From Candidatus Hermodarchaeota archaeon (lineage in GTDB: Archaea > Asgardarchaeota > Lokiarchaeia > Sigyniarchaeales > SOKP01): a stretch of DNA of 36,069 bases. Every line of letters starts with the position of its first letter. Position 1 is the first letter of the stretch. The DNA is taken from the NCBI GenBank assembly GCA_048885525.1, contig JBHLLP010000033.1, forward strand, positions 1-36,069, in the 5' to 3' direction. The notes under the pieces were generated by a model. That model did not search any database and had not been told where the DNA came from. It worked only from the letters and a program-made list of their open reading frames with translations. The translations under genes were made by a program, and so were the position numbers. Shown here one piece after another: positions 2,190 through 26,281 of the stretch.

Positions 2190-3707
2190 TCATTTCTTAC
2201 CTTTATCAAATTTTTTTTCTTCCACAAATTCTTTATATGATTTGACTGGCTTTAAATAGTCAATTGGAAATTCGCATGCCCAGCACACATTTTCCAAATC
2301 CGTAATTGCTCGAGCACAATCTTCGCAATAAATTGCACCACAATCACATATATATGTGAATCTTGAAACTTGTCCTCTACACACTAAGCAAATTTTGGTT
2401 TCTTTAGATACTACCACTTTCTCTTCTGAAATGAACACTGGTAACAGCGCCCGTTTCTCAATAATTTCTTCAATTTGTTCATTTAATCGAGCTAATTTTA
2501 TACGTTCATCCATTGGGGCTCCCATTTCCTTTAACTTTTCCCATACTTCTGTTTGTTTTAATAATTTAGTTTGTTCGTCTGCAATCTTCTCTGCTACTTC
2601 TGTGTACCCAAACCTTTCAGCTATTTTCTGAGCTTGAGTTAGAAAACGTTTAGCTTTCTTTAATTCAGCTGTTAATAAAGAGAGTTTTCCCTGTAGAAAG
2701 TAAGTTTGAGCTAAAATTAAATACACATGTTGTTTTTCAGCAATTTCTAATAACTCTTGTATAAATGGTTGTATCTCACCTATTATTTCTGGGTCATTAG
2801 TTATTCGAAGTTCAATTAAAAATAAATCACACAGATCTATTATCGCTTTAATCCGTGTTTCAACAATTATAGTTTTATCCATAGCTAATTCTATTAATAA
2901 ACCTTCTGCCTTAACACGGTCTCTTGCTCGTAGACTTGATTTTAATACCATAGCTTTTGAATGACGATAACGGATTTTGTTAATCTCAGTATCAATACTC
3001 TCTGTAAGCTGCCGTGATTGTTCAAGGTAAACCTTTGCTTCATCAATATCTCCCTTACTGATAAAGATATCAATTAATGTTCCCAATGCGATTGATAATA
3101 CAGGTTTATAATTAATCTTAACAGCTTCTTTAGCATAGAATATTGCCTTATCATATTCTTTTATCCAAATGTAGTTATCAGCAATATTATTAAGACTAAT
3201 AGAAATTAGTTCTTTATTACTTGTAGCTTTTGCAAGTTCGTAAGCCTCTTTATTAAATTCTAAAGAACGTAGAATTTCTCCTTTCCAGCTATAAATATTA
3301 GCTTTTATCCTTACTAATGACGATTCTCTTTCTCTTAAGTCTATTGTATATGTTTGTTTAATCACTTTAAAGAGATCCTCTGCTTGCTTAATTAAATCTT
3401 CACTTTGACTTATGTTTCCCATTATAATATGTCCAAATGCTTGATTAAGCAAAGAATCAAAAGAAAAGAGTAAAGCTCCTTGCTTCTGACTTTCTTGAAA
3501 AATTTCTTCAGCATTTTTAATAGCATCGAAGTAGTTTCCTAACTTATATAAAAGCTTAACTTTTAATAATTTGCACGAAAGCAATTCTTGAGGAGATAGA
3601 ACATTTCGTTTTTCTATTTCCAAAACTATTTGGAAGGGTTCCTTAACTTTGCCCTCTTCCATAAGTTGTTTTACTTGTATCAATTTTTTATTTTCAAAAT
3701 TAGACAT
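2190..3707 (-). CDS. TPR-repeat protein with C-terminal C4C4 RING-like zinc finger
   Basis: Helical TPR-like repeats. C-terminal CLVC-x10-CDCGAIYCEDC-x10-CWAC has eight Cys with NOT4-like C4C4 RING spacing. Confidence 0.8.
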   Translation of the reverse strand: MSNFENKKLIQVKQLMEEGKVKEPFQIVLEIEKRNVLSPQELLSCKLLKVKLLYKLGNYFDAIKNAEEIFQESQKQGALLFSFDSLLNQAFGHIIMGNISQSEDLIKQAEDLFKVIKQTYTIDLRERESSLVRIKANIYSWKGEILRSLEFNKEAYELAKATSNKELISISLNNIADNYIWIKEYDKAIFYAKEAVKINYKPVLSIALGTLIDIFISKGDIDEAKVYLEQSRQLTESIDTEINKIRYRHSKAMVLKSSLRARDRVKAEGLLIELAMDKTIIVETRIKAIIDLCDLFLIELRITNDPEIIGEIQPFIQELLEIAEKQHVYLILAQTYFLQGKLSLLTAELKKAKRFLTQAQKIAERFGYTEVAEKIADEQTKLLKQTEVWEKLKEMGAPMDERIKLARLNEQIEEIIEKRALLPVFISEEKVVVSKETKICLVCRGQVSRFTYICDCGAIYCEDCARAITDLENVCWACEFPIDYLKPVKSYKEFVEEKKFDKGKK

Positions 3708-10292: not shown

Positions 10293-11807
10293 TTAATTTT
10301 TTCCTTTTATTTCTAAATCTATACTTTCTTCTTCCTTATATGATATTGTTGGCTTCAAAGAATCAATCGGAATGTCACACACCCAACATAGATTTTCCAA
10401 ATTGGTTAAAGCTCGAGCGCAGTTTTCGCAATAGATAGCCCCACATTTACATATATACGAGAAACCCAATACTTCACCTTTACATACCAAGCACATTTTC
10501 TTCTCTTTAGAAATTATTACTTCCTCTTCTTTAACTTGCGTCCTTAATATAATAGGCTTTAGATTCATTTTTTCAATTAATTCATCTATGCGAGCTAGTT
10601 CTAAACGTTCTATCATTGGTGCTCCCACTTCCTTAAGTTTATGCCATAAAACTGATTTTTCGTTTAAATCCTCTTTCTCTTTAGAAATTTGTTGGGCTAA
10701 TTGAATATGGTCAAATCTTTCTGCAATTTGCTGAGCTTGGGTAAAGAATCGTTTAGCTTCTTTAAAATTAAAAATTAGTAGACTTATTTTTCCTTGTAAG
10801 AGAAATGTCTCAGCAGCAAAATAATAGGATTTTTGATGTTCTGCAATTTTTAATAATTTTTTAATATATGGGTTTATTTCGTTTATTATATCTGAATCGT
10901 TAGTTATTCTTAATTCAATAAGAAGTAGGTCACAAATATTTATTATTGCTTTAATAACGAACTGGAAATTTTCTTTTTCCTCAGCAACTTGCTTAAATAA
11001 ATCTTCTGCTTCAATTCTATCTCTTGCTCGCAAACTCGTTTTCAATATTAAAGCTTTATAGTAATGATACAATAATTCAGAATAACTTTGTTTATCTTTT
11101 TCTATTAAATCACTCATCAGTTGGAAATAATATTTTGCATTAATAGTATCACCCTTCCCTAGATAACTATCAATCAGAAGTCCAAAAGAATTTAATAACC
11201 GAGGGGGGTAACCGACTTCTAGAGCACGTTTTGCATAATTTATAGCTTTATCATAATCTCCAAGGAAATGATAAGATTCCGCAAGATTTAATAGAGGTGA
11301 TGATTTTCGCTCTTTATCTTCACTATATTTTGCGAGCTCGAAAGCTTTTTCATTTAACATAAGGCTAAGTTGAGAATTTCCTGTAAGTCCTGCATTAATA
11401 GCTTTAATTCTGATCATATAAGATTCTTTTTCTCTAAGATCTGTCTTTGATACTCCTTTGAGATTTTCAAATATCTCCTCAGCTTTTTTAAGCGCAATAC
11501 TACTTTTACTTAAATCTCCCATCATTAAAAGTGAATATGCTTGAATTAACAAACCTTCAAAATATGAGGGTAAATCTCCTTGTTTTTGAGTTTCTTGTAA
11601 AAATTGGATAACAAGGCTAAGAGTTTTTGAATATTTTGATGACCTATATAATAACCTTAATTTCAATAACATAAAAGAGATTAAATTCTGATTAGATAAA
11701 TTACTCCTCTCCTCAATATCCAAAATAATTTGCAACGCTTCTTTAATTCTCCCTTCATATGTAAGCTGTTTTACTTTATTCAGCTCAATAATCTCAGAAT
11801 CAGACAT
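10293..11807 (-). CDS. TPR-repeat protein with C-terminal C4C4 RING-like zinc finger (paralog of 2190-3707)
   Basis: CLVC-x10-CKCGAIYCENC-x10-CWVC; shares the LRARDR..AE and CDLLLIELRITND blocks with the other TPR proteins. Confidence 0.8.
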   Translation of the reverse strand: MSDSEIIELNKVKQLTYEGRIKEALQIILDIEERSNLSNQNLISFMLLKLRLLYRSSKYSKTLSLVIQFLQETQKQGDLPSYFEGLLIQAYSLLMMGDLSKSSIALKKAEEIFENLKGVSKTDLREKESYMIRIKAINAGLTGNSQLSLMLNEKAFELAKYSEDKERKSSPLLNLAESYHFLGDYDKAINYAKRALEVGYPPRLLNSFGLLIDSYLGKGDTINAKYYFQLMSDLIEKDKQSYSELLYHYYKALILKTSLRARDRIEAEDLFKQVAEEKENFQFVIKAIINICDLLLIELRITNDSDIINEINPYIKKLLKIAEHQKSYYFAAETFLLQGKISLLIFNFKEAKRFFTQAQQIAERFDHIQLAQQISKEKEDLNEKSVLWHKLKEVGAPMIERLELARIDELIEKMNLKPIILRTQVKEEEVIISKEKKMCLVCKGEVLGFSYICKCGAIYCENCARALTNLENLCWVCDIPIDSLKPTISYKEEESIDLEIKGKN

Positions 11808-11926: not shown

Positions 11927-12481
11927 TTACAATTCATTGGAAAGAGCTTTAAACTTATTATATAATTTTTCGATAAGAGTATTAAAAGCTTTATAAACTC
12001 CTTCTCCTGTTTTTGCTGATGTTATATAATATCCGAGAAAATTTCGTTCTTTTATAAGTTCTTGAATTTTGGTTTTATCCAAATTGTCTTCCTCAATTAA
12101 ATCAACTTTATTGGCAAAAACAACAATAGGAATATCTCCACAGTATTGTTTTATATCATCATGCCAATTTGTTATATGTTCAAAGCTCCGTGTACCCAAA
12201 TCGTTTTCTTCGAGACTATATACGATAATAGCTGCTCTACTTTCTCTATAAAAAGAAGGACGTAAAAAAAGGAAATCATCTTGCCCTGCTATATCCCAAA
12301 ATAATAATCTAATCTTATCTCCACTAATTTCTGCAAAGAACTCAGAAAATTGGGCACCAATGGTCTTAATATATTCTTTTTGAAACGTGCCTTGCGTGAA
12401 CTTTTTAATCAAGGAAGTCTTTCCTACGCTACCATCCCCTATAACAATAACCTTAAATCCGAATTTTTGAGAATCATTCAT
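11927..12481 (-). CDS. Rab/Ras-like small GTPase
   Basis: GDGSVGKT, YIKTIG, WDIAGQ, NKVD, TSAK; close paralog of 3824-4378. Confidence 0.93.
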   Translation of the reverse strand: MNDSQKFGFKVIVIGDGSVGKTSLIKKFTQGTFQKEYIKTIGAQFSEFFAEISGDKIRLLFWDIAGQDDFLFLRPSFYRESRAAIIVYSLEENDLGTRSFEHITNWHDDIKQYCGDIPIVVFANKVDLIEEDNLDKTKIQELIKERNFLGYYITSAKTGEGVYKAFNTLIEKLYNKFKALSNEL

Positions 12482-12546: not shown

Positions 12547-12616
12547 TCTCTGTGAATCTTGAAAAATTAATAAAATACTTATTTAAAATATAAGGGAAAA
12601 AAAAGAAAAAAAATTT

Positions 12617-12697
12617 TTAATAATTTTGATAAACTTGACAATATCCATTGTTATAGACTTTTACTCGTTGTTTTTCAGCAACGTCCATTTTTTTCAT
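12617..12697 (-). CDS. Unannotated 26-aa peptide MKKMDVAEKQRVKVYNNGYCQVYQNY
   Basis: Strong SD GGAGGTGAT (12713-12705) 7 nt before the ATG, own TATA box (12765-12771), U-rich terminator-like tract after the stop (12597-12613), upstream region homologous to that of 23283-23357. Confidence 0.75.
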   Translation of the reverse strand: MKKMDVAEKQRVKVYNNGYCQVYQNY

Positions 12698-12804
12698 TTT
12701 TTTTATCACCTCCATTTTGTATTGTTTTTTATTTTTTTCTTAATTTTAATATGGATAAGCTTCGTTATATAGTTTTTATTGCGGAACTTTTCGCGAAGTT
12801 CGAA
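12698..12804 (-). promoter_or_regulatory. Peptide-gene leader, BRE/TATA and palindromic operator GAACTT-N6-AAGTTC
   Basis: Minus strand AAAAACTATATAA; palindrome at 12784-12801; ungapped alignment to 23358-23464, and its last 44 nt align to 24273-24316. Confidence 0.75.
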
Positions 12805-12899: not shown

Positions 12900-14855
12900 T
12901 TAATTTAACCGAATTGTTTTTTCAGCAAATATTTCATTTATCAATGGTTCTAGGGAAGGGATATCTTTTAATTGTACTAATCGGCTTGTTTGGTTGTATT
13001 CATTGAACGTCTTCCATATGGTTGCATCCTGTTTAACATTATCAATGAATTTTGCTACTCTTTGCTGCGCGAGATATGATTGTCCCTTGAATAAATAGCA
13101 TACAAGGAAAGGATGCAAAGAATTCATAATAATTGTATACTCCCCAAAATTCGCCCTGTTGAGACCCTCAGAGAACATTTGATCACTAAAGGAATTTATA
13201 GCTGTTAGAAAACCTCCAAAAAGATGATCCTCGAAAGCCCATTCTTCCGCAAAGGAATTAGAGAATAGGGGCCTACCACCCTCTGAAATAATCAATAGTA
13301 CGATAGGTTCCTCATCAGTAAGCTCAGGAACAATAATTTCTCGTTTTCGGATCATCCTTTCCATCTGTTCATTTGGACTTGCTAACTCCAAGCGTTCATA
13401 TAATGGTGCTTTAGATTCTTTTAATTTGTTCCACACATCTAATTGTTTAAGTAATTCATCATGCTCATTCGATATCTTTATTGCTAACCGATTGAGACCA
13501 TAATTATCTGCTATTTCTTGAGCCTTAATTAATAACTGCCGAGCTTTTTTTATATCCAACGTAATTAAGGATAATCTTGCTTGGAGCAAATATGTTTCAG
13601 CTAATAGAGAATAAGAACGCGAATTTTTAACGGTGTCAAATAATTGAGAAATATAAACTTGCAATTCATCCAGTATTTCAGGTTCGTTAGTTGCATATAA
13701 CTCAAATAGGAGCAAATCGCACAAGTTCAGGAGAGCCATTTTTAAACTTTCAAAGTCAGAGATTTCTTCTTCAATCAACTGTTTTAACATCTCTTCAGCT
13801 TTCCCACGATTAACAGCGCGGGGGCTAGATTTCAGGTATATAGCTCTATCAATGTTATATAGTATATTATAATAATTGGATTGATTCTTTTCTTGATCAG
13901 AAATTTGCTTCATTCGATTTAACCATCGCTGTGCCTGTTCAAGATCGTTCATATCAAGAGCTAATTGAAACAAACTATCAGTAAAGGCAAATTTCTGAAT
14001 AATTGTACCATATTCTTCTGCAATAGTTATACTTTTTTTCAAAAACTTTAAGGCATTGTCGTAATCGCCTTTTTCATGGTATGTCATTCCAATGCTATTA
14101 TATATTGGTGATAATAATTCTAATTTGTTTTCTTTCTCTGTAAATGATAGGATTTGTTCGTAATAACTAAGAGCCTTATCTAATTCACCTTTGAGCGTAT
14201 AAATCATTCCAAATTGCAAATTGCAATAGTGAAAAATATCTATTAAGTCAAGTTTATTGCAATGATTTTTACATGATTTAATATATTCTAAAGCACAGTT
14301 TAAGTTTCCAATTTTCCAGGAAATCACTCCAAGTTGGTAATGCATAAGAGCAATATCTACTTTTAGATTGAGATCTTCTAGGATTACTAGAGATTCCTCC
14401 CTAAATTCTTTAGCTTTTTCCAGATCTCCTTTCTGCTCATGATAAGCGCCTTTGTTCCATAATATATATGCTTTTCTTTTTTTGAGTTCTGTGGATAATT
14501 CTTGAGGGAGTATCTTCAGTAGATCTTCACTCTTTTTGATAAAGCCAGCTGCTTCATTTGTCTTATAAGACCAATTTGATATAGCTCCCATAAGAATATA
14601 GACATCAAGCAATAAAATGGAATTTTCAAGCTTTTGGCTTTCACGATAAGCTTTTTCGGTATATTTTGTACATTCATTTCTATCTTGAAAATAAAAGGCG
14701 ACAAAACCTTTTAGACAATAATAAGCTATCCGCTCACGATAAGAGAGATCTTTTTTGTTTTTAAAATCATTGAGTATTTGAAGAGCTTCTTCGATTTTAC
14801 CTGCTTCAATAAGCTTTTCTGCTTGACCTAATTCCTTATGTATTAAATGAGCCAT
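12900..14855 (-). CDS. TPR-longin protein, array copy 5
   Basis: TPR repeats plus longin-like tail LLIISEGGRPLFS...HLFGGFLTAINSFSDQMF. Confidence 0.82.
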   Translation of the reverse strand: MAHLIHKELGQAEKLIEAGKIEEALQILNDFKNKKDLSYRERIAYYCLKGFVAFYFQDRNECTKYTEKAYRESQKLENSILLLDVYILMGAISNWSYKTNEAAGFIKKSEDLLKILPQELSTELKKRKAYILWNKGAYHEQKGDLEKAKEFREESLVILEDLNLKVDIALMHYQLGVISWKIGNLNCALEYIKSCKNHCNKLDLIDIFHYCNLQFGMIYTLKGELDKALSYYEQILSFTEKENKLELLSPIYNSIGMTYHEKGDYDNALKFLKKSITIAEEYGTIIQKFAFTDSLFQLALDMNDLEQAQRWLNRMKQISDQEKNQSNYYNILYNIDRAIYLKSSPRAVNRGKAEEMLKQLIEEEISDFESLKMALLNLCDLLLFELYATNEPEILDELQVYISQLFDTVKNSRSYSLLAETYLLQARLSLITLDIKKARQLLIKAQEIADNYGLNRLAIKISNEHDELLKQLDVWNKLKESKAPLYERLELASPNEQMERMIRKREIIVPELTDEEPIVLLIISEGGRPLFSNSFAEEWAFEDHLFGGFLTAINSFSDQMFSEGLNRANFGEYTIIMNSLHPFLVCYLFKGQSYLAQQRVAKFIDNVKQDATIWKTFNEYNQTSRLVQLKDIPSLEPLINEIFAEKTIRLN

Positions 14856-14971
14856 AATTTTCTCAGATATTATAGGTTTGAATAGCTTGGATTATAACTT
14901 TTCAGATACAAGTTATATAGTAAGAAAATTACCATTTTAAATGTAATTACAATACCAATAAAAAATCGAAT

Positions 14972-16924
14972 TTACGCAATCAGGGGGACACTTTTATCTA
15001 TAAAGATTTTAGTTATCAATGGTTCAAGGGAAGGAACATCTTTTAATTGAACTAATCGGCTTGTTTTATTATAATCATTAAACATCTTCCATATGTTAGC
15101 ATCCTCTTTAACATGATCAATGAATTTTGCCACTCTTTGCTGTGCAAGATATGATTGACCCTTAAATAAATAACATACGAGGAATGGTTCGAGAGGATTC
15201 ATAATAATAGTATACTCTCCAAAATTAGCCCTATTGAGCCCCTCAGAGAACATCTGATCACTAAAGGAATTTATAGCGGTTAAAAAACCTCCAAAAAGAT
15301 GATCTTCGAAAGCCCATTCTTCTGCAAATGATTTAGAGAATAGAGGCCTTCCACCCTCCGAAATAATTAAAAGTACTATAGGATCTTCATCAGTAAGCTC
15401 AGGAACAACTATTTCTCGTTTTCGGATCATTTTCTCCATCTGTTCATTAAGTTGTGCTAACTTCAAGCGTTCAGCTAAAGATGCTTCTGATTCTTTTAAT
15501 TTGTCCCACACATCTAATTGTTTAAGTAATTCATCGTGCTCATTCGAAATTTTCATGGCTATTAAATTAAGACCGTATTTTTCGGCAACTTCCTGAGCTT
15601 GTGTCAAAAACCGCCGAGCTTCGTTCGTATCAAAAGTTATTAATGCTACTTTGGCTTGTAATAGGTAGGTTTCAGCGAGATACCAAAACGAGTTTGTTTT
15701 CTCAGTTAATTCTAATAAACGATTTAGATTGGTTTTAATCTCTTCTAGCACTTCAGCATCGTTAGTTATGCGTAATTCAACCAATAATAAATCACAAAGC
15801 TCTATTAATGCTTCAATTTTTGAAATAACTCCTTCTTCTTCAATAATTTCTCTCAATATTTCTTCTGCTTTGACCCGGTTTTTAGCTCTTGTGCTTGTTT
15901 TCAGTAGGATGGCGCTACTCAAACGAAAACATGAATTAATCCATTTACTTTCCTCTTGTTCGTTGAGCTGCTTTAAGCGGTTAAAGTGTTTTTGAGCTAA
16001 TTCAAGATCGCCCATTTCGACTGCTGCACCAATCAAATTAGTAAGAGTTGTAGATGTGTGTAAATTAATCCCGAGTTCCTCTCTTATTGTTAGACCTCGC
16101 TCTAGATGCCCTAAAGCACGAATAAAGTCACCCTTTCCTCTATAGATATTCCCAATTTGGGTATGTGCAGCTGCGATCATCTGTTTATTATTAATCTTTT
16201 CGTGTAATTTTAAACCTTGCTCTGCATATATGAGACTTCGATCTAATTCACCTTTATTCAAATGAACAAGCATTAACCATAGCAAGTTTTGAGCTATAAA
16301 ATACTTGCTATTACTTTCCTCTGCTAATAATAAACTTCGCTTTAGATATTTAATGGCATGATTCAATTCACCTTTTTGTCCAAAAAGAATATGAGCGATC
16401 CAATAAAGGGATTCAGCAATCATAACTTTATTGTCTAATTTCTCTCCCAATTCTAAACTCTGTTCTAAGAACTTTAGTTGATTATCCATTATTTGAATGA
16501 ATATACCTTTAACTAAAAAAATGTGAGCTTCTCGTTTCATGATGTCTTCTGGTAATTCTCGGGTAAATTTTTTTAATAATTCTTCGGCTTGGTTAATTAC
16601 ATTAATAGCTTCCTCTTCTCTATCAAGAAATTTTAAAGCCTTCGCGCTGAGTATTAAGGCGTCAACTGATTGGAGATTTTTTCCCAACTCTAAACTCTCT
16701 TTATATGTTTGATCTGCTATTTTAAGCATTTCCTCAAATTTCCATTGCCAATATAAAAGGTTGCACTTGAGGAGCCGAAATGATACTTTATCCTGAAGCA
16801 TGAGGCCCTTCATTTGCTCGAAACTGTCAATGAGTTGGAGGGCTTCATCATACTTGCCTTCATCAATGAGTTTTTTTGCTTGAACAAGCTCCTTAGATTC
16901 ATCACTGGACATATTTTCATCCAT
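14972..16924 (-). CDS. TPR-longin protein, array copy 4
   Basis: Same architecture; ELRITND subtype. Confidence 0.82.
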   Translation of the reverse strand: MDENMSSDESKELVQAKKLIDEGKYDEALQLIDSFEQMKGLMLQDKVSFRLLKCNLLYWQWKFEEMLKIADQTYKESLELGKNLQSVDALILSAKALKFLDREEEAINVINQAEELLKKFTRELPEDIMKREAHIFLVKGIFIQIMDNQLKFLEQSLELGEKLDNKVMIAESLYWIAHILFGQKGELNHAIKYLKRSLLLAEESNSKYFIAQNLLWLMLVHLNKGELDRSLIYAEQGLKLHEKINNKQMIAAAHTQIGNIYRGKGDFIRALGHLERGLTIREELGINLHTSTTLTNLIGAAVEMGDLELAQKHFNRLKQLNEQEESKWINSCFRLSSAILLKTSTRAKNRVKAEEILREIIEEEGVISKIEALIELCDLLLVELRITNDAEVLEEIKTNLNRLLELTEKTNSFWYLAETYLLQAKVALITFDTNEARRFLTQAQEVAEKYGLNLIAMKISNEHDELLKQLDVWDKLKESEASLAERLKLAQLNEQMEKMIRKREIVVPELTDEDPIVLLIISEGGRPLFSKSFAEEWAFEDHLFGGFLTAINSFSDQMFSEGLNRANFGEYTIIMNPLEPFLVCYLFKGQSYLAQQRVAKFIDHVKEDANIWKMFNDYNKTSRLVQLKDVPSLEPLITKIFIDKSVPLIA

Positions 16925-17023
16925 ATTTTTAGAAAAAATTGGATTCTAATTTTCAATATACAAGTTATATATTAAGTTATTTATCATTTTAAATGTACTT
17001 AAATTATCAATAAAAATTCGAGT

Positions 17024-19000
17024 CTACGCAATCAGGGGGACGCTTTTATCTATAAAGATTTCATTTATCAAGGGTTTGAGGGAAGGAATATCCTTTAATT
17101 GTACCAATCGGCTTGCTTGATTAAATTTATTAAAAATATTCCAAATTTCTGCATCCTCTTTAACCTTATCTATGAATTGTGCTACTCTTTGCTGCGCGAG
17201 ATATGATTGTCCCTTAAATAAATAACATACGAGGAAGGGATGGAGAGAATTCATAATAATGGTATACTCCCCAAAATTAGCCCTGTTTAGCCCCTCAGAG
17301 AACATCTGATCACTAAAAGAATTGATAGCAGTTAAAAATCCACCAAAAAGATGATCCTCAAAAGCCCATTCCTCAGCAAACGATTCAGAGAATACAGGTC
17401 TTCCACCCTCGGAGATAATCAGAAGAACGATAGGTTCTTCATCAGTAAGCTCAGGAACATCTATTTCTTGTTTTCGGATCATTCTTTCCATCTGTTCATT
17501 TAGATGTGCTAGCTTCATGCGTTCTGACAAAGATGATTCTGATTCTTTAATTTTGTTCCATTCATCTAATCGCTTAAGTAATTCATCGTGTTCATTCGAA
17601 ATTTTGATTGCTAATCGATTAAGACCATATTTTTCTGCTATTTCTTGAGCCTTAGTTAGAAAATATCGAGCTTTTATCAAATCCAACGTTAATAACGCCA
17701 ATTTAGCTTTTAAAAAGTATGTTTCAGCTAATAAAAAATAGGAATTCATCCGTTCAGATTCGTCTAATAAACGAGCGATAATAGATTCGATCTCTTCTAA
17801 AACTTCTAAATCATTGGTTATACGTAATTCGACTAATAATAAATCACATAATTCTAGCATTGGGGCCGCCGAATAAATATTTCCTTCGTCTAAAAGCTCT
17901 TTTAAGATTTCTTCTGCTTGGACTCGATTTTTAGCTCGAGGGCTGGCCTTCAAAATCAAAGCTTTATAATAAAGATGCATCATATTAACATATTCGTCCC
18001 TCAATTGATTGTTTAAACGCTCAATTTGATCAAGATGTTTCTGTGCTGACTCAAGATCGCCCTTATCAATTAAAATTTGAATTAAAACCCCGCGGGCTTT
18101 AGCACTATCTTTTAACATTTCCAACTCAGAATATAATGCTAATCCTCGCTCAGCGTAGTCTAACGCGCGATTATATTCTCCTTTCATTCTATACGTATTT
18201 CCTAGAGAGCAGCACCCTACTGCTATTTCGGATTTATTATTGAGCTCCTTGAAAATCGCTAAACTTTGTTCATAATATTTAATACTCAGATCAAGTTCAC
18301 CCCTAAGGAAATACACTGCATAGATATAGGTTAAACCAAATGCAATTATATATTTATTTTTAAGCTCTTTTTTCTTAACTAGAGCCAGAAATCGCTCGAT
18401 ATACTTTAAAGCATCATTTGTTTCACCCTTTATACGACCTAAGTTATAAATTATTTCCATAAGTGATATAGCGATTTCCTCTTTATCCCCAACCTCTTCT
18501 TGCAATGCTAAACTCTGATAAAGTTGATCTAAAACAAAATTTACATCCCCATTTCGATTAAAGTATTTATTATTAGAAAATGCTTTAACATAAATTATTC
18601 GTGCCTTTCTTTTCTTGTAATCTTTTGGTAATTCTTTAGTTAGGGTTTTCAGTAGTTTTTCTGCCTGCTTAATTGTATCAGAAACTTCCTCTTTTCTATA
18701 AAGAAATACTAAACCTAAAGCCTTAAAACATAAAGCATCAATAGACAGAAGATGTTTACCTAATACTAAACTCTCTCCATACGTTTGTTCAGTAAATTTG
18801 ACAAGATCTTCATATTGCCCTTGTTGGAATAAAAGCTCGCATTTGAGGAGATGACATGACACAATCTCATGAAGATTGCGTTCACCTGTTTCCTCAAATT
18901 TATTCATTAATTGGATCGCTTTTTCGCTCTTTCCCTTGTCTATGAGTTGTTTTACAAGAATTAATTCCTTCGGTTCTAAATAAGTAATATGATTTTCCAT
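17024..19000 (-). CDS. TPR-longin protein, array copy 3
   Basis: Same architecture; ELRITND subtype. Confidence 0.82.
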   Translation of the reverse strand: MENHITYLEPKELILVKQLIDKGKSEKAIQLMNKFEETGERNLHEIVSCHLLKCELLFQQGQYEDLVKFTEQTYGESLVLGKHLLSIDALCFKALGLVFLYRKEEVSDTIKQAEKLLKTLTKELPKDYKKRKARIIYVKAFSNNKYFNRNGDVNFVLDQLYQSLALQEEVGDKEEIAISLMEIIYNLGRIKGETNDALKYIERFLALVKKKELKNKYIIAFGLTYIYAVYFLRGELDLSIKYYEQSLAIFKELNNKSEIAVGCCSLGNTYRMKGEYNRALDYAERGLALYSELEMLKDSAKARGVLIQILIDKGDLESAQKHLDQIERLNNQLRDEYVNMMHLYYKALILKASPRAKNRVQAEEILKELLDEGNIYSAAPMLELCDLLLVELRITNDLEVLEEIESIIARLLDESERMNSYFLLAETYFLKAKLALLTLDLIKARYFLTKAQEIAEKYGLNRLAIKISNEHDELLKRLDEWNKIKESESSLSERMKLAHLNEQMERMIRKQEIDVPELTDEEPIVLLIISEGGRPVFSESFAEEWAFEDHLFGGFLTAINSFSDQMFSEGLNRANFGEYTIIMNSLHPFLVCYLFKGQSYLAQQRVAQFIDKVKEDAEIWNIFNKFNQASRLVQLKDIPSLKPLINEIFIDKSVPLIA

Positions 19001-19099
19001 AGATTATCAGTTTAAGAATATGGATTATAACGGTTTGAATACAATTATATTATTAAGAAAATTGAAATTTTAAATGTAATTAAACTCTCAACTAAAAAA

Positions 19100-21052
19100 C
19101 TAAGCAATAAGGGGGACGCTTTTATCAATAAAAATCTCATTTATCAATGGTTCAAGAGAAGGAATATCTTTTAATTGTACTAATCGGCTTGCTAGATTAA
19201 AATCATTAAATGTCTTCCATATGACAGCATCCTCTTTAACCTTATCAATGAATTTTGCTACTCTTTGCTGTGCGAGATATGATTGTCCCTTAAATAAATA
19301 ACATGCGAGGAATGGTTCGAGAGAATTCATAATAATGGTATATTCACCAAAATTCGCCCTGTTGAGCCCCTCAGAGAACATCTCACCACTAAAGGAATTG
19401 ATGGCAGTTAAAAAACCACCAAAAAGATGATCTTCGAACGCCCATTCTTCCGCAAAGGATTTAGAGAATACGGGTCTACCACCCTGTGAAATAATCAATA
19501 ATACGATAGGTTCCTCATCAGTAAGCTCAGGAACAATAATTTCTCGTTTTCGGATCATCCTTTCCATCTGTTCATTTGGACTTGCTAACTCCAAGCGTTC
19601 AGATAATGGTGCTTTAGATTCTTTTAATTTGTTCCACACATCTAATTGTTTAAGTAATTCATCGTGCTCATTTGATATCTTTATTGCTAACCGATTGAGA
19701 CCATATTTATCTGCTATTTCCTGAGCCTTAATTAACAACTGCCGAGCTTTTTTCATATCCAAGGTAATTAAGGATAATCTTGCTTGGAGTAAATATGTTT
19801 CAGCTAATAGGGAATAAGAACGGGAGTTTTTGACGGTGTCAAACAATTGAGAAATATAAACTTGCAATTCATCTAGTATTTCTGGTTGCCCAGTCGCATG
19901 TAATTCAAATAAGAGCAAATCACATAAGTTAAGGAGAGCTATTTTTAATAATTCATAATCGGAAATTCCTTCTTCAATTAATTGTTTCAACATCTCTTCA
20001 GCCTTACCCCGATTGAGAGCTCGAGGGCTATATTTCTGGAAAATTGCTCTATCTACGTTATATACTATATTAAGTCCTCTTGAATTTTCTCGATCAGCGA
20101 TTTGCTTAATTCGATTCAAGTATTTTTGTGCTTTTTCAAGATCGTTCATATCAAGAGCTAAGTGAAACAAACTATCAGATCTGTAAATTGTATGATACTC
20201 TTCCTTAATAGTTATACTTTTTTCCAGATTTTCTAATGCTCGGCTGAAATCTCCTTTTTCTTGATAAATCATTCCAATATTATTGTACATCGTTGTAATT
20301 AATACTAAATCATTTTCTTTTTCTGCAAATGCTAGTGCTTTTTCATAATAACTAAGAGCTCGATCTAGTTCACCCTTCATACTGTAAATAATTCCAAATT
20401 GATTATAACAACTGTGAATAAGGTTTATTAAGTTGAGATTATTAGCAAGAATTTTACAGGATTCAATAATTTCTAGAGCATGGTTTAAGTCTCCAATAAG
20501 CCAAAAAACCCGCCCAAGTTGAAAAAGAGTCAGAGCAATGTCCGCTTTATGATTGAGTTTTTCTCGTATTACTAGAGATTCCTCCGCACATTCTTTTGCT
20601 TTTTCCAATTCTCCTTTCAGCTGGCATTTAAAGCCTTTTAGCCACAATAGAAAAGCTTTTTTTTTTGTCAGTTCTGTGGATAATTCTTGAGGGAGTATCT
20701 TTAGTATGTCTTCACACTTTTTGATAAATTCATATGCTTCATTCGTCTTATAATGCCAGAGTAAATTATTTGCCATTTGAAGATAGACATCAAGCAATAG
20801 AAGGGAATTTTCAAGCTTTTGACTTTCACGATAAGCCTTTTCGGCATATTTTGCTATTTCATTTCTATCAAAAAAATAATTGGCGAGGCTACTTTTAAGT
20901 GTATAATAATAAATTCGCTCAAAGTAAGGAAGATCTTTTTTCTCTCCAAAAGTATTCACTAATTGGAGTGCATTTTCGATTTTACCTTCATTAATAAGCT
21001 TTTCTGCCTGAATAAGCTCCTTAGGTTCTGAATAAACCATATGTTTTTCCAT
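19100..21052 (-). CDS. TPR-longin protein, array copy 2
   Basis: Same architecture; first 91 aa differ from copy 1 at only 3 positions. Confidence 0.82.
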   Translation of the reverse strand: MEKHMVYSEPKELIQAEKLINEGKIENALQLVNTFGEKKDLPYFERIYYYTLKSSLANYFFDRNEIAKYAEKAYRESQKLENSLLLLDVYLQMANNLLWHYKTNEAYEFIKKCEDILKILPQELSTELTKKKAFLLWLKGFKCQLKGELEKAKECAEESLVIREKLNHKADIALTLFQLGRVFWLIGDLNHALEIIESCKILANNLNLINLIHSCYNQFGIIYSMKGELDRALSYYEKALAFAEKENDLVLITTMYNNIGMIYQEKGDFSRALENLEKSITIKEEYHTIYRSDSLFHLALDMNDLEKAQKYLNRIKQIADRENSRGLNIVYNVDRAIFQKYSPRALNRGKAEEMLKQLIEEGISDYELLKIALLNLCDLLLFELHATGQPEILDELQVYISQLFDTVKNSRSYSLLAETYLLQARLSLITLDMKKARQLLIKAQEIADKYGLNRLAIKISNEHDELLKQLDVWNKLKESKAPLSERLELASPNEQMERMIRKREIIVPELTDEEPIVLLIISQGGRPVFSKSFAEEWAFEDHLFGGFLTAINSFSGEMFSEGLNRANFGEYTIIMNSLEPFLACYLFKGQSYLAQQRVAKFIDKVKEDAVIWKTFNDFNLASRLVQLKDIPSLEPLINEIFIDKSVPLIA

Positions 21053-21154
21053 AAATTATCGGTTAAAAATTTGGATTATAACTTTTCAGATACAAAGAAT
21101 ATATTAAGAAAATTACCATTTTAAATGTAATTTTCTAACAATCTAAATTCGAAC

Positions 21155-23122
21155 CTACGCAATTAGGGGGATACTTTTATCTACAAAGATTTTTGTTATT
21201 AATGGTTCGAGCGAAGGGATATCTTCTAATTGTACTAATCGGCTTGTTTGGTTGTATTCATTAAACGTCTTCCATATGATTGCATCCTCTTTAACATTCT
21301 CAATGAACTTTGCTACTCTTTGCTGTGCGAGATATGATTGTCCCTTAAATAAATAACACACAAGGAAAGGATGGAGCGAATTCATTATGATAGTATACTC
21401 CCCAAAATTAGCTCTGTTGAGCCCCTCAGAGAACATCTCATCGCTAAAGGAATTTATCGCGGTTAAAAAACCACTAAAAAGATGATCTTCGAACGCCCAT
21501 TCTTCTGCAAATGATTCAGAGAATATAGGCCTTCCACCTTCTGAAATAATTAATAATACGATAGGCTCCTCATCCGTAAGCTCAGGAACAATAATTTCTC
21601 GTTTTCGGATCATCCTTTCCATCTGTTCATTTGGGCGCGCTAACTTCATACGTTCAGATAAAGATGCTTTAGATTCTTTTAATTTGTTCCATACATCTAA
21701 TTGTTTAAGTAAATCATCGTGCTCATTCGATATTTTTATTGCTAAACGATTAAGGCCATATCTATCTGCTATTTCCTGAGCCTTAATTAACAACTGCCGA
21801 GTTTTTTTCATATCCAACGTGATTAATGATAATCTCGCTTGGAGTAAATATGTTTCAGCTAGTAAAGAATAAGAACGAGAACTTTTAACAGTGTTAAATA
21901 ATTGGGAAATATAAATTTGTAGTTCATCTAATACTTCTGGATCATTAGAAGCATGTAATTCATAAAGGAGCAAATCGCATAAGTTAAGGAGAGCAATTTT
22001 TGAAGATTCGTAGTCAGAAATTCCCTCTTCAATTAATTGTTTTAAGATCTCTTCAGCTTTACCCCGATTAAGAGCTCGAGAACTAGTTTTCAGATAAATG
22101 GCTCTATCAATGCTATATGGTAGATTATAATAATTTGTTTGATACTTCTCTTGATCTGCAATTTGCCTCATTTGATTTAAGTATCGCTGGGCTTGTTCAA
22201 GATCGTTCATATCAATAGTTAAATGAAATATTGTATCCGAAACAGTAAATATTTCATAATTCGTACCATATTCTTGTTTAATAGCTATACTTTTTTCTAA
22301 ATTTTCTAATGCACAGTTAAAGTCTCCTTTTTCTTGATAGATCATTCCAATATTGTTATAAATACTTGAAATAAAGGTCATATTATTTTCTTTTTTTGCA
22401 AATGGTAATGCTTTTTCAAAATAACTAAGAGCCCGATCTAATTCACCTTTCATAGAGTAAATACACCCAATTTGATTATAACAACGGTGAAGTAGATGTT
22501 TTAAGTTAAGATTATTAGCAAGAGTTTTTGATGATTCAGAATATTCTAAGGCATTTAAGTCTCCAGTTATCCATGAAAACCATCCCAGTTGATAAAGAAT
22601 TAAAGCTATATCTGTTTTAATATTAAGTTCTTCTAGTAATACAAGAGTTTCTTTCCAAAATTCTATAGCTCTTTCCAGTTCTCCTGTTTGTCGAAGGTCC
22701 TCGCCTTTTAACCATAATATATATGCCTTTCTTCTAGTGAGTTCTGTAGATAATTCTTGAGGGAGTTTCTTCAATAGGTTTTCACTATTTTTAATAAATT
22801 CAAATGCTTTCTTTCTCTTAGAATGTAAGAATAAATTAATTGCCATTAGAAGATAAACATCTAGCAAGAGTAGGGAATTTTCAAGCTTTTGACTTTCATG
22901 ATAAGCCTTTTCGGCATATTTTGCCATTTCATTTCTATCAAAAAAATAATTGGCGAGTCTACTTTTAAGTGTATAATAATATATTCGCTCAAAGTAAGGA
23001 AGATCTTTTTTCTCTCCAAAAGTATTCACTAATTGGAGTGCATTTTCGATTTTACCTTCATTAATAAGTTTTTCTGCCTGAATAAGCTCCTTAGGTTCTG
23101 AATAAACCATATGTTTTTCCAT
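21155..23122 (-). CDS. TPR-longin protein, array copy 1
   Basis: Same architecture. Confidence 0.82.
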   Translation of the reverse strand: MEKHMVYSEPKELIQAEKLINEGKIENALQLVNTFGEKKDLPYFERIYYYTLKSRLANYFFDRNEMAKYAEKAYHESQKLENSLLLLDVYLLMAINLFLHSKRKKAFEFIKNSENLLKKLPQELSTELTRRKAYILWLKGEDLRQTGELERAIEFWKETLVLLEELNIKTDIALILYQLGWFSWITGDLNALEYSESSKTLANNLNLKHLLHRCYNQIGCIYSMKGELDRALSYFEKALPFAKKENNMTFISSIYNNIGMIYQEKGDFNCALENLEKSIAIKQEYGTNYEIFTVSDTIFHLTIDMNDLEQAQRYLNQMRQIADQEKYQTNYYNLPYSIDRAIYLKTSSRALNRGKAEEILKQLIEEGISDYESSKIALLNLCDLLLYELHASNDPEVLDELQIYISQLFNTVKSSRSYSLLAETYLLQARLSLITLDMKKTRQLLIKAQEIADRYGLNRLAIKISNEHDDLLKQLDVWNKLKESKASLSERMKLARPNEQMERMIRKREIIVPELTDEEPIVLLIISEGGRPIFSESFAEEWAFEDHLFSGFLTAINSFSDEMFSEGLNRANFGEYTIIMNSLHPFLVCYLFKGQSYLAQQRVAKFIENVKEDAIIWKTFNEYNQTSRLVQLEDIPSLEPLITKIFVDKSIPLIA

Positions 23123-23282: not shown

Positions 23283-23357
23283 TTATTTAGTAATTGTTGG
23301 GATAATAGGAAATCCAGCACTTTTTACGAATATTGCCTTGCTTGCTTTTCTTTTCAT
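23283..23357 (-). CDS. Unannotated 24-aa peptide MKRKASKAIFVKSAGFPIIPTITK
   Basis: SD-like AGTGAT 7 nt before the ATG, same spacing as the 12697 peptide; homologous promoter; long U-rich tract after the stop (~23242-23275). Confidence 0.7.
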   Translation of the reverse strand: MKRKASKAIFVKSAGFPIIPTITK

Positions 23358-23464
23358 TTTTTTTATCACTTTTTTTTGTTTTATTATTTTGTTTTTTTCT
23401 TAATTTTAATATTGAAATACTTCGTTATATAGTTTTTACCGCAGAACTCTATTCGAAGTTCGAA
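23358..23464 (-). promoter_or_regulatory. Peptide-gene leader, BRE/TATA and operator, copy 2
   Basis: GAACTC-tattcg-AAGTTC at 23444-23461; colinear with 12698-12804. Confidence 0.75.
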
Positions 23465-23614
23465 CATTTATCAAGATAAGAAAACTAGTAAAAAAATTTA
23501 AGAATTAAACTCTCAAAAAAGAATAAAAGACTGTTTAAAAAAGAATAAGATAAAAATTAAAAAAAGAATAAGAAAAGAAACTATTTATACATAAATAGTT
23601 GGGATGTTCATAAA

Positions 23615-24214
23615 TTAATTTAAAAACTTTGATTTCTGGATAAATAAAATATTGGATTTAACGTTAGATTCTTTCAATTTCTTCGATATCTCAACAAAAG
23701 TATTTTCTTCACCAAAATGAACAAAAGTTATTCCTTTATCTTCGCGACCTTTTAAAATCTCTAGAATTCTTTTAGTAATAGCATCCGTTCGTACACGATT
23801 ATTGATGTAATGCTTTAAATCTTTTAATTCATCTGAGTAATCATAAATTAAATAACCTAGCTCTTTAGCAGTTGGAGAATTTTTATCTTCTAATGAATTA
23901 TATGTAGCTTTTAACTCAGAAAGTCTCTCCTGAAGTTCAGTTATTTGACTTGAGAAGTAATCCTTTACATAATGAGGTGATTCAACTGTGAAATAAGGGA
24001 TCTCAAATTGTTTCAACACTTCTGCCAAATAAGTATTATTGAAGTCTCTTAGATTTATACTACCCAAATCAATTGTTGCGAAATGTATAGGAAGATTCCT
24101 TATCTTTTCAACAACATCCTCAATATCTTCTTGTGTAACTTCACCATTTAAATCTCTTATTAAATATCCAGAGAAATCTATATCAGCCAATAATTCAAAC
24201 ATTATACTTGCCAT
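23615..24214 (-). CDS. Hypothetical alpha/beta protein, possibly degenerate TraB/PrgY/GumN (TIKI/EreA-like) fold
   Basis: Start moved to ATG 24214 (MASIMF; SD-like AGTGAA), since the 24277 ATG lies only just 3' of the TATA box, probably upstream of the transcription start. EDIEDVVEKIRNLPIHFATIDL, YLAEVLKQFEIPYFTVES and RTDAITKRILEIL...TFVHFGEEN...LKE resemble TraB/GumN blocks by eye. CDS is confident, family is tentative. Confidence 0.6.
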   Translation of the reverse strand: MASIMFELLADIDFSGYLIRDLNGEVTQEDIEDVVEKIRNLPIHFATIDLGSINLRDFNNTYLAEVLKQFEIPYFTVESPHYVKDYFSSQITELQERLSELKATYNSLEDKNSPTAKELGYLIYDYSDELKDLKHYINNRVRTDAITKRILEILKGREDKGITFVHFGEENTFVEISKKLKESNVKSNILFIQKSKFLN

Positions 24215-24272
24215 TTTATTTTCACTTTTTTTTATTTTGTTTGTTTTTTTTATAATTATATTATAAGATAAG

Positions 24273-24340
24273 TTCATTATATAGTTTTAAATATGAAACT
24301 TCATACGAAGTTCGAACTTAAAAAAAAGTTTATATAGAAT
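24273..24340. promoter_or_regulatory. Back-to-back promoters with operator copy 3 (AAACTT-N6-AAGTTC, plus perfect AAGTTCGAACTT)
   Basis: 44-nt ungapped alignment to the two peptide promoters. Minus-strand TATA at ~24278-24283 and plus-strand AAAAAAGTTTATATA at ~24322-24336 ahead of the regulator. Confidence 0.75.
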
Positions 24341-24385: not shown

Positions 24386-26281
24386 ATGAGTATTGTAAAT
24401 TATCCTCCTAAAGAGATTTATAAAGCACCTAAATATGGAAAGAAGAATTTTGAGCATATAATTCTTTGGATGCTAGCAAATAATGATGAATGTCAATGGT
24501 CAGACTTTACACAGGATCCTTTAGGATTTAGTACTTCAACTCTATCTAAATATTTCAATTTATTAAAGAGTAGGGGATATGTTGATAATTATTCTCGAGG
24601 TTATTATAAGATAACACTTGAAGGGGAAAAGAGATTTAATGATTTATCTAGAACCCGTGGTGAGAAAAGAAGATTAAGCTATCCTCCTGAAGTAATTTTA
24701 AGGAGGAGAAATTATGATGATTGGATTCTATGGATGGTTTATAATAATACATTTTTGAAATGGTCTGATTTTCTTGCTGAACCTCTTAGCATTAACCAAT
24801 CATCCCTATCAAAGAATATGAATCTTTTGATAAATAAGGAGTATGTACTAAAAGAGAATAAAGAGTACCGAATTACCCGTTCAGGCAAAATAGAGTATTC
24901 AAGAATGCTACAGAATTATGACTTAGATAGACAATCAATTTTAGATGAGGAGAGTAAGAGAATTGAAGAGATTACCAAAAAAACCATAGAATTCTTTGAC
25001 ACTTACGATATTAGGGATGAAGATATTCAATTTAGGTATCTCAATAACGTTATAAGGTTAGATTATGCCAGAGTTAAAGCTATGTTAACAGAAGAGGAGG
25101 ATTTTGAAAAAATCTTACTTTTTCTTTCAATGAATCATCCAAACCAATATCCAAACTATATTTCTATGGAAGATTTTTCAAAGACCTATAGAATAAAGGA
25201 GTCAAAATTGGAGTATTATATTGATGAGATCGTTGAGAATCAGATATATCCAATAAAATTTTTCAAATTAAAGCTTCCTCCGAATGAAGTATATTACTTC
25301 CAGGAAAATGAAAGAGTAGAGATTATGCTTCGGGCTATAACAGAAGATCATATAACTAAATTTACTTACTTAAGTAAGTTATTTTCAAGATCATTAGATT
25401 TACGTACTACCATTGATAATATATTAGATGATATTTGTGGGTTATTATTTAATGAATGTTTTAAAGAGTCTTTAAGTGAGTTTCTACATGATTATATTAG
25501 TTACTTAGCATATAAGATTGAAGCGAAAGAAGAATTAAAAGAAACATTAGATAAACTAGAAGGAATAATCTGGCAGGATATGATGGAATTATTTCAATCA
25601 CTGAGTACTGGGGATTTGAAAGACCAATTTGAAGAACAGATTAAAGAGATAGATAAGGAAATCAAATCTGATCCGGATAATATCGATTTATACAATTCAA
25701 AAATCTCAATTTTACTCTACTATGAACAATTAGAAGATGTATTGAAATTATTAAATGAAATGCTAGAGAAATTCGAAGAGAATGAAATTGGTATTAAGAT
25801 GAAAAAAGCATCAGTTCTTAGAAGAATGCGAGATGTACAGAGTGGTTTAGATATTATCAATGAATTAATCAAGAAATATCCTGAAAATAATGATCTACTT
25901 AATTTTAAAGTCTATTGGTTACAATATTTAAATAGAAGAGAAGAAGCATTGAAAATAATTGAAGATCTCATTGCTAACGTTCCTGATAATGGAACGTATC
26001 ATGATACATATGGAGAACTCCTAATGTATTATGAAGAATATAAACAAGCTACAGAAAGATTCTTAAAAGCAATTGAAATAGCTGGTGATGAGTGGTATAT
26101 TAATCAAACATATATTAAGCTAGGAATCTGCTATAAAGAACTTAAAAACTTCGATTTAGCGCTTCAAAATCTTAAAAAAGGTAAAGAGTTAACAAACAAA
26201 AGCTCAGGAGATGCAGAGACTAGACAAAAATGGCTTACAATCGCTGACCTTTTTCTATTAGAAATAGAACAAATGCTTTAA
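24386..26281 (+). CDS. Tandem winged-HTH + TPR putative transcription regulator (paralog 2)
   Basis: Full-length paralog of 8277-10175 (shared PLSINQ.SLSKN, NYDLDRQ.IL.EESKRIEEITKKT, TYIKLGICYK). Confidence 0.8.
   Translation: MSIVNYPPKEIYKAPKYGKKNFEHIILWMLANNDECQWSDFTQDPLGFSTSTLSKYFNLLKSRGYVDNYSRGYYKITLEGEKRFNDLSRTRGEKRRLSYPPEVILRRRNYDDWILWMVYNNTFLKWSDFLAEPLSINQSSLSKNMNLLINKEYVLKENKEYRITRSGKIEYSRMLQNYDLDRQSILDEESKRIEEITKKTIEFFDTYDIRDEDIQFRYLNNVIRLDYARVKAMLTEEEDFEKILLFLSMNHPNQYPNYISMEDFSKTYRIKESKLEYYIDEIVENQIYPIKFFKLKLPPNEVYYFQENERVEIMLRAITEDHITKFTYLSKLFSRSLDLRTTIDNILDDICGLLFNECFKESLSEFLHDYISYLAYKIEAKEELKETLDKLEGIIWQDMMELFQSLSTGDLKDQFEEQIKEIDKEIKSDPDNIDLYNSKISILLYYEQLEDVLKLLNEMLEKFEENEIGIKMKKASVLRRMRDVQSGLDIINELIKKYPENNDLLNFKVYWLQYLNRREEALKIIEDLIANVPDNGTYHDTYGELLMYYEEYKQATERFLKAIEIAGDEWYINQTYIKLGICYKELKNFDLALQNLKKGKELTNKSSGDAETRQKWLTIADLFLLEIEQML

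Follow-up and report, generated by a model that had tools for sequence, protein, structure and literature searches.

We analysed a 36,069-nt stretch of contig JBHLLP010000033.1 of Candidatus Hermodarchaeota archaeon (the window, by which we mean the whole stretch), and our subject is a short open reading frame (ORF) of 26 codons that lies on its minus strand, in a region running from 12800 to 12597. As contig C33, the window belongs to a genome of 3.58 Mb and 29% G+C, whose nearest relatives are metagenome-assembled genomes (MAGs) named Promethearchaeota or Lokiarchaeota archaeon. A preliminary description of the window had claimed here a 26-aa frame with a Shine-Dalgarno (SD) sequence, a 7-nt spacer, a TFB-recognition element (BRE) and TATA box, an upstream palindrome and a U-tract, and all of these are present on the minus strand. 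The same elements recur as a cassette elsewhere in this genome and in relatives; each copy is called a unit, and the counts below refer to 41 units with a short frame. The features at the target locus are:

12785..12800, minus strand: operator palindrome AACTT-N6-AAGTT, AACTTCGCGAAAAGTT; half-sites invariant in 41/41 units, N6 spacer varies
12765..12776, minus strand: BRE/TATA box AAAACTATATAA; a 12-mer conserved in all units, starting 8 nt after the operator
12739..12752, minus strand: conserved block ATATTAAAATTAAG, shared with paralogues and orthologues
12705..12713, minus strand: SD GGAGGTGAT (9 nt), followed by seven A and then ATG
12620..12697, minus strand: coding sequence of the 26-aa family-A micropeptide, with its TAA stop at 12619..12617
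12597..12613, minus strand: oligo-T terminator T8-C-T8, beginning 4 nt past the stop

The distance from BRE/TATA to ATG is 57-81 nt across units and 79 nt for the target, and the ATATTAAAATTAAG block, about 25 nt downstream of the TATA box, is the predicted transcription start region. The SD had been singled out as the strongest noticed in the window; GGAGGTGA occurs only once there and exactly complements the 16S rRNA 3' end of the organism itself, GGATCACCTCCT on contig C32. Oligo-T is an archaeal intrinsic termination signal. An upstream in-frame ATG at 12715, which would yield 32 aa, lies within the SD and is missing from all orthologues; we therefore place the start at 12697. The peptide, like all family-A members, is hydrophilic and basic, and on direct reading it has no hydrophobic stretch, in keeping with the earlier claim that a hydrophobic signal H-region is absent; nor does it contain the hydrophobic transmembrane helix of a type I toxin or membrane micro-protein. 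Scans for tRNAs and Rfam families found neither in the window. Two other candidates at the locus were rejected. One is a 48-aa antisense frame (12626..12772, plus strand), a by-product of the A-rich sense strand, with promoter, SD and terminator all on the minus strand; the other is a hairpin at 12666-12683 from a plus-strand terminator scan, which is not conserved among orthologues.

Comparison with related genomes bears directly on whether the frame is coding. When the 251-nt unit was searched against 60 relatives, each of the 36 sampled genomes of the genus matched, with several matches per genome. Full-length orthologues of the target were found in five species, four with 26 codons and one with 23 owing to a clean three-codon deletion, and three family-A members of 29 codons, behind the same promoter, came from a profile search that covered all 54 genomes of the genus. 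Nine species, including the target's own, keep the family-A frame at 23, 26 or 29 codons, with indels in-frame only, the ATG in register and the core EK..(R/Q)(V/L)KV(Y/F)NxGY invariant; E8, K13, V14, N16, G18 and Y19 are the same in every member. The sense frame is the only one that stays open throughout the five 26-codon orthologues tested. Nei-Gojobori ratios of nonsynonymous to synonymous substitution rates (dN/dS), which rest on 23-29 codons, were 0.16-0.32 in 8 of 10 pairs, and the pooled ratio of nonsynonymous to synonymous proportions (pN/pS) in family A was 0.34 over the first 19 codons and 0.92 over codons 20-26; in five groups defined by family and length, pooled pN/pS was 0.24-0.71. 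Family-A orthologues keep differing sub-windows of the anti-SD complement (GAGGT, GGTGA, GTGAT, AGGAGGT), and a run of at least five T lies within 27 nt of the stop in all nine members. The preliminary description had named random stops or a missing ATG behind homologous promoters as the mark of a spurious frame and had proposed preservation of the ORF as a check; what the nine species show is the same frame under purifying selection. Six of the peptide sequences (among them the target, its paralogue in the window, the contig-C25 copy and two orthologues) were absent from a collection of 15 billion proteins, and ten peptides compared with Pfam and NCBIfam at E values up to 10 returned only noise (bactofencin A, E 0.31, 11 bits; YmiA-like, E 0.2).

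The target gene belongs to a set of cassettes specific to its clade. Within the organism's own genome, a BLAST search with the intergenic region recovered three further copies extending from the palindrome to the first codons, at 23474..23352, at 24326..24209 and on contig C25. Two of these precede short frames (24 and 23 codons) with an SD and T-runs, while the third drives an ORF of 199 aa. The elements in the window, together with the regulator gene beside them, are:

23283..23460, minus strand: second window cassette, encoding a 24-aa family-B peptide (operator 23460..23445, TATA 23436..23425, coding sequence 23357..23286)
23618-24214, minus strand: 199-aa ORF (220 aa in extended form), with the same operator and TATA cassette, divergent from the regulator
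24297..24312, no strand assigned: third copy of the operator, lying where the promoters of the regulator and of the 199-aa ORF (24214..23618) diverge
24386..26281, plus strand: regulator of 631 aa with two winged helix-turn-helix (wHTH) domains, a further winged helix and TPRs (Pfam HTH_34, HTH_45, TPR)

Orthologues of the family-B peptide occur in eight or more species. The copy on contig C25 (19417-20060) is a fourth cassette, for a 23-aa family-F peptide, and directly follows a fragment of 92-112 aa with 63% identity to the C-terminal end of the TPR-longin proteins described below; the locus looks like a truncated copy of the array end that has moved and taken its peptide cassette along. 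The family-F peptide of another species is divergent from the regulator. The C25 peptide and the target share the C-terminal pattern Gly-Tyr-x-x-Gln/Asn-aromatic.

A first census, taken from loci of about 30 species, yielded 56 distinct cassette units, of which 41 lead to distinct frames of 22-30 codons, 11 to longer genes and 4 to nothing usable. In the short-frame units, the operator ends exactly 8 nt before BRE/TATA in every case (41/41), an SD core is present in 40/41 and a run of at least five T within 27 nt of the stop in 35/41; none of the 41 peptides contains a hydrophobic segment that could serve as a secretion signal of a propeptide. The exact 35-nt operator-plus-TATA pattern was then scanned over 185,579 species genomes, giving 84 stretches, about 53 of them in Promethearchaeota-type MAGs (some with more than one site) and the remainder single matches in unrelated AT-rich bacteria and archaea; three additional stretches were found in IMG/VR. 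The chance matches form a natural control. Among 60 Asgard sites, 48 have SD and ATG as expected and 45 open a frame of 20-32 codons, 35 of these with a T-run; among 30 sites in unrelated organisms, 7 have SD and ATG as expected and none opens such a frame. The scan contributed 22 additional distinct peptides, bringing the total to about 63. The species compared are relatives and the counts overstate independence, so the case rests on several unrelated peptide families and on the control of 0/30.

The order within the cassette is AACTT-N6-AAGTT, 8 nt, BRE/TATA, a leader of about 45-50 nt, SD, ATG, 22-30 codons and oligo-T, and the 26-codon frame would be a separately transcribed and translated micro-gene. 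One could instead suppose that the region specifies a small non-coding RNA, or nothing, and that the frame is incidental, given that it falls below gene-caller length and that the T-rich antisense frame is nearly open too. Against this stand the register of the ATG, the narrow length window, the SD core, the in-frame indels and pN/pS values below 1 across families; furthermore, RNAalifold found 0 conserved pairs in nine orthologous transcripts, which, with no Rfam match, is not what a structured small RNA would give, and chance copies of the promoter pattern outside the clade are never followed by such a frame. Only 7-8% of random ATGs in the genome open a frame of 22-30 codons, compared with 41 of the 52 distinct units with an ATG in the expected position; this and the natural control (45/60 against 0/30) take the frame beyond chance. 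We consider the non-coding alternative extremely unlikely and are highly confident that the 26-codon frame is a real gene that has never been annotated.

The cassette is linked to the regulator by position. An AlphaFold2 (AF2) model of the regulator (41-row alignment, predicted local distance difference test (pLDDT) 79.5) contains three winged-helix-like domains, with the TPRs at residues 416-630; a DNA-binding domain is thus fused to a TPR-type domain, the architecture of RRNPP(A) receptors. The best regulator orthologue was taken from each of 30 species, and in 26 of them its first divergent neighbour is a cassette ORF of 22-30 codons, with the cassette 60-190 nt from the regulator ATG. At ten regulator loci, a second cassette stands in tandem, and in eight of these both copies precede a short peptide frame. 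The peptides, sorted by motif into families A to G, alternate at the orthologous position among species. In the window, TATA-like boxes read from the sequence flank the operator at 24297-24312 on both sides at similar spacing; the arrangement suggests one site serving a bidirectional promoter and hence possible autoregulation. Four further regulator paralogues in the same genome each face a small divergent ORF:

C79:1359-1920: regulator-paralogue locus, facing ORF of 60 aa
C27:3558-3800: regulator-paralogue locus, facing ORF of 15 aa
C10:44100-44758: regulator-paralogue locus, facing ORF of about 72 aa
C10:56970-57190: regulator-paralogue locus, facing ORF of >60 aa

The C27 locus and the two C10 loci have palindrome variants of their own, with AACTT- or ATAGT-type half-sites, and none is clear at C79. 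Regulator homologues number at least 1230, all unnamed or named merely TPR protein, and a search with one query at one threshold (E 1e-30) gave no match in five genomes, complete ones included, that belong to other Lokiarchaeial families. The module looks restricted to this family or genus. Contigs with the cassette and peptide families have been deposited as Thorarchaeota or Hodarchaeota (L110, L113, L131), and regulator homologues carry the labels Odin, Thor, Hermod, Hod and Heimdall; these mixed labels suggest inconsistent naming of MAGs from one clade, not a wide distribution.

Downstream of the target gene lies its conserved neighbour:

11927..12481, minus strand: Ras/Rab-like small GTPase (Pfam Ras, 1.3e-42)

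An orthologue of this GTPase follows the micro-ORF in 6 of 9 family-A loci, is also found behind members of families B, C, D and E, and is the usual next gene after the regulator-adjacent peptide across species. This proximity raises the possibility that read-through into the GTPase gene is tuned by translation of the frame, which would then be a leader or upstream ORF, since in the six family-A loci the GTPase orthologue begins only 90-234 nt downstream, and the oligo-T just past the stop could be a regulated terminator. Yet the cassette has its own operator and TATA box and also precedes unrelated genes (TPR-longin, TPR-RING, PepF, LarA-like), two cassettes often stand in tandem with a promoter each, the spacer before the GTPase contains a conserved TATA-like block of its own, and selection acts on the peptide sequence, beyond the frame alone. 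Attenuation of this kind is, in our view, very improbable. The variety of unrelated downstream genes and the T-run after the stop in 35/41 units argue for a monocistronic unit rather than a leader peptide, which supports the initial reading of the locus as a complete stand-alone transcription unit.

How might such a gene be controlled, and what could its product do? Palindromes whose half-sites do not vary serve as sites for dimeric DNA-binding proteins, and a site directly upstream of the BRE is the usual position for an archaeal activator. Most likely, the wHTH-TPR regulator binds the palindrome as a dimer and controls the cassette, and since the palindrome is immediately upstream of the BRE, it would probably act as an activator. 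The peptide, with no signal or membrane segment, would be expected to stay in the cytoplasm. It appears to consist of a constrained part, basic at the N-terminus and strand-like up to an Asn-x-Gly-Tyr turn, and of a fast-changing C-terminal heptapeptide. TPR grooves bind short extended peptides, and we propose that the micropeptide may be a ligand of a TPR domain encoded in the same module, the regulator being the most likely target, which would close a feedback loop; the Ras-like GTPase would then be a co-regulated or interacting output. We tentatively favour this full chain, in which an operator-controlled gene specifies a cytoplasmic peptide ligand of a TPR domain of its own module, with the regulator as first candidate and a logic resembling that of Rgg/SHP.

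Several observations weigh against this model. In the window, the target peptide gene is 11.6 kb from the regulator, separated from it by the 199-aa ORF, the family-B peptide gene and an inserted TPR-longin array. The regulator is uniformly conserved (mean column identity 76% over 41 homologues), with no hypervariable TPR surface, and the peptides adjacent to it belong to at least seven unrelated-looking families; even among regulators that share 86-88% identity with this one, some face family A and others family B. Such switching of families beside near-identical regulators appears to contradict strict co-diversification of receptor and peptide. The 50 best PDB matches of the regulator TPR domain in Foldseek are generic TPRs (OGT, CTPR, APC, MamA, Tom70), with no RRNPP chain among them, and the target copy, whose C-terminus has diverged, gives a dN/dS of 1.66 (from few sites) against its nearest orthologue. 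In addition, no RRNPP Pfam family was found in the regulator that would indicate homology to Rap, Rgg, NprR, PlcR, PrgX or AimR. A complex prediction for regulator residues 186-631 with the family-A peptide scored 0.01 and weighs neither for nor against binding; the peptide is below the calibrated size of the tool.

The genes between the regulator and the GTPase, and those beyond, offer other candidate partners for the peptide:

12900..23122, minus strand: five paralogous TPR-longin proteins of about 650 aa each (TPR by Pfam), an array between the regulator and the peptide gene
10293-11807, minus strand: TPR protein with a weak RING-finger match (Cys-rich end, zf-C3HC4_3, E about 1e-3)
2190-3707, minus strand: TPR protein with a weak RING-finger match (Cys-rich end, zf-C3HC4_3, E about 1e-3)

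The name TPR-longin, which came from the preliminary description, is justified by structure: the last 185 aa of the first protein in the array, modelled with AF2 (31-row alignment, pLDDT 73), matched AP sigma, LAMTOR/Ragulator, the longin domains of Sec22b and VAMP7, Mon1-Ccz1 and TRAPP in Foldseek. With such candidates at hand, the peptide could be an output instead, acting on the TPR-longin or TPR-RING sensors or on the Ras-like GTPase and tuning an intracellular longin/GTPase switch, its gene still being controlled through the operator. This would suit a regulator that does not vary, an array with a confirmed longin/roadblock output domain that is flanked by the two peptides of the window, and the genes found behind two of the families, family C mostly preceding a TPR-RING orthologue (4 of 6 members of 25 aa) and family A the GTPase (6/9). 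However, many species have the regulator, the peptide and the GTPase with no TPR-longin gene between them, and the GTPase is well conserved (68-84% identity) where the peptides are not. We judge an output role unlikely, though a serious competitor.

A further alternative departs from the cytoplasmic ligand more sharply, in that the peptide would leave the cell by a non-canonical route, either to signal quorum or kin or as a product resembling a bacteriocin or RiPP (RiPP, ribosomally synthesized and post-translationally modified peptide), with the C-terminal heptapeptide as its mature part. A conserved N-terminal part followed by seven residues under near-neutral or diversifying change resembles propeptides with a C-terminal signal, leaderless peptides can be exported with no known signal (PMC10518010), and an operator-like site precedes a transporter of the major facilitator superfamily (MFS) type at the locus of a regulator paralogue. 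A weak structural lead to TraB/PrgY/GumN comes from the 199-aa ORF that shares the operator, its ESM Atlas matches being archaeal clusters of that group (TM 0.63, feature score 0.81) along with Mpt_N Rossmann-like domains. As a TraB/PrgY peptidase, however, this ORF has no support from sequence: it belongs to no Pfam family and, by eye, has no N-terminal motif of the GTAHV type, leaving the structural lead alone. The peptide itself has no signal peptide, double-glycine leader or hydrophobic segment; neither in the window nor in the relatives examined is a transporter, peptidase or RiPP-modifying enzyme syntenic with the cassette, whose clustered neighbours are TPR, GTPase, SET and PepF genes, and the sole match to a precursor-like family is the noise-level one to bactofencin A mentioned above. 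A radical SAM gene (29820-30713) lies at a distance of 17 kb, and within the flanks of about 1.5 kb covered at the relatives' loci it was not seen beside any cassette. Export is, in our view, quite improbable.

If the regulator-ligand circuit is real, its closest counterparts would be bacterial, and they would be analogous rather than homologous, as we detected no relation of fold or sequence. Like Rgg/SHP and ComR/ComS of streptococci (RRNPP(A)), the module pairs a presumably cytoplasmic DNA-binding protein that carries a TPR-type repeat domain with a divergent micro-ORF, of about 20-25 codons in Rgg/SHP, and with a palindrome in the shared intergenic region, and peptide variability is concentrated towards the C-terminus. 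Unlike Rgg/SHP, the receptor here would have two or three winged helices and canonical 34-residue TPRs in place of an XRE-type HTH and degenerate RRNPP repeats, the hydrophilic, basic peptides lack a hydrophobic segment for export, peptide families switch beside an unvarying receptor, the host is an archaeon and a Ras-like GTPase is part of the module. In the PrgX/PrgQ/PrgY system of Enterococcus pheromone plasmids, too, the promoters of regulator and peptide diverge around one operator, and the candidate TraB/PrgY-like protein of the window (a single structural lead, TM 0.63, no Pfam support), which shares the operator, would extend the likeness, but plasmid and conjugation context is absent here. 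From eukaryotes, CHIP, HOP and PEX5 are known as TPR receptors for short C-terminal peptides; TPRs beside RING- or longin-type output domains in the cluster, and peptides with variable C-termini, recall them by pure analogy.

Small ORFs of this kind have escaped annotation elsewhere. In Firmicutes, leaderless peptides from ultra-small ORFs bind TPR-type regulators, and SIP, a peptide of 8 aa, has been shown to be secreted, re-imported and bound by RopB (PMC10518010). The target resembles RopB/SIP in being an unannotated ultra-small ORF of a family found beside the regulator, with no secretion or processing signals and overlooked by annotation pipelines; it differs in that the peptides here are 22-30 aa long and known from sequence only, in sharing no homology, and in that the putative receptor is not of the Rgg clan. 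Stand-alone archaeal small proteins, for example those of Methanosarcina mazei and Haloferax volcanii (PMC10117724), likewise come from monocistronic small ORFs with a promoter and terminator of their own, and are cytoplasmic and presumably bind a larger protein. They are encoded by single conserved genes, whereas the present ones share an operator cassette, a large family-switching repertoire and, it would seem, one regulator.

Asgard Ras/Rab-like GTPases and longin proteins are usually discussed merely as eukaryotic signature proteins, and the favoured circuit, if true, would give them a defined regulatory context. It would also mean that receptor-plus-micropeptide circuits arose outside Firmicutes too; the kind of circuit is known, but the domain of life and the GTPase wiring would be new. 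In its widest form, the proposal is that this is the first peptide-based regulatory system known in Archaea, with the micro-ORFs as the signal or ligand repertoire of a winged-helix-TPR factor acting through one invariant operator, and with fast-switching peptides, cytoplasmic or secreted, coupled to Ras/Rab-like GTPases, TPR-longin and TPR-RING proteins; RRNPP-like logic would have been invented independently, and wired into GTPase machinery of eukaryotic type, in the prokaryotes most closely related to eukaryotes. We found no description of such a system in the literature searched, and regard this wide form as somewhat unlikely. Its parts are testable: a 16-bp operator, one regulator, short synthetic peptides and one GTPase. 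On a minimal reading, at least 60 conserved micro-genes are added to a clade with an uncharted small proteome, together with an exact DNA signature by which such micro-genes can be located.

Some further observations concern the surroundings and the reach of the cassette. Genes for oligoendopeptidase F (PepF, M3) and a SET-domain protein occur at 1-1819 of the window and at relatives' loci L010, L012, L017, L021 and L024, conserved just past the GTPase in several species, and the shortest form of the module comprises the regulator, peptide, GTPase, SET and PepF genes. In the organism's own genome, operator-plus-TATA matches also occur at C10:56242 (minus strand), before an MFS-type membrane transporter and beside a regulator paralogue, and at C31:8035 (plus strand), before an ORF starting MSKIKITV. 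Cassette copies at loci L137 and L141 have hydrophobic or signal-like products, namely a membrane-like peptide of 31 aa and a protein of 213 aa whose N-terminal segment is signal-like, and those at L027 and L033 likewise drive 72-aa two-helix membrane proteins; the regulon is therefore not limited to soluble peptides.

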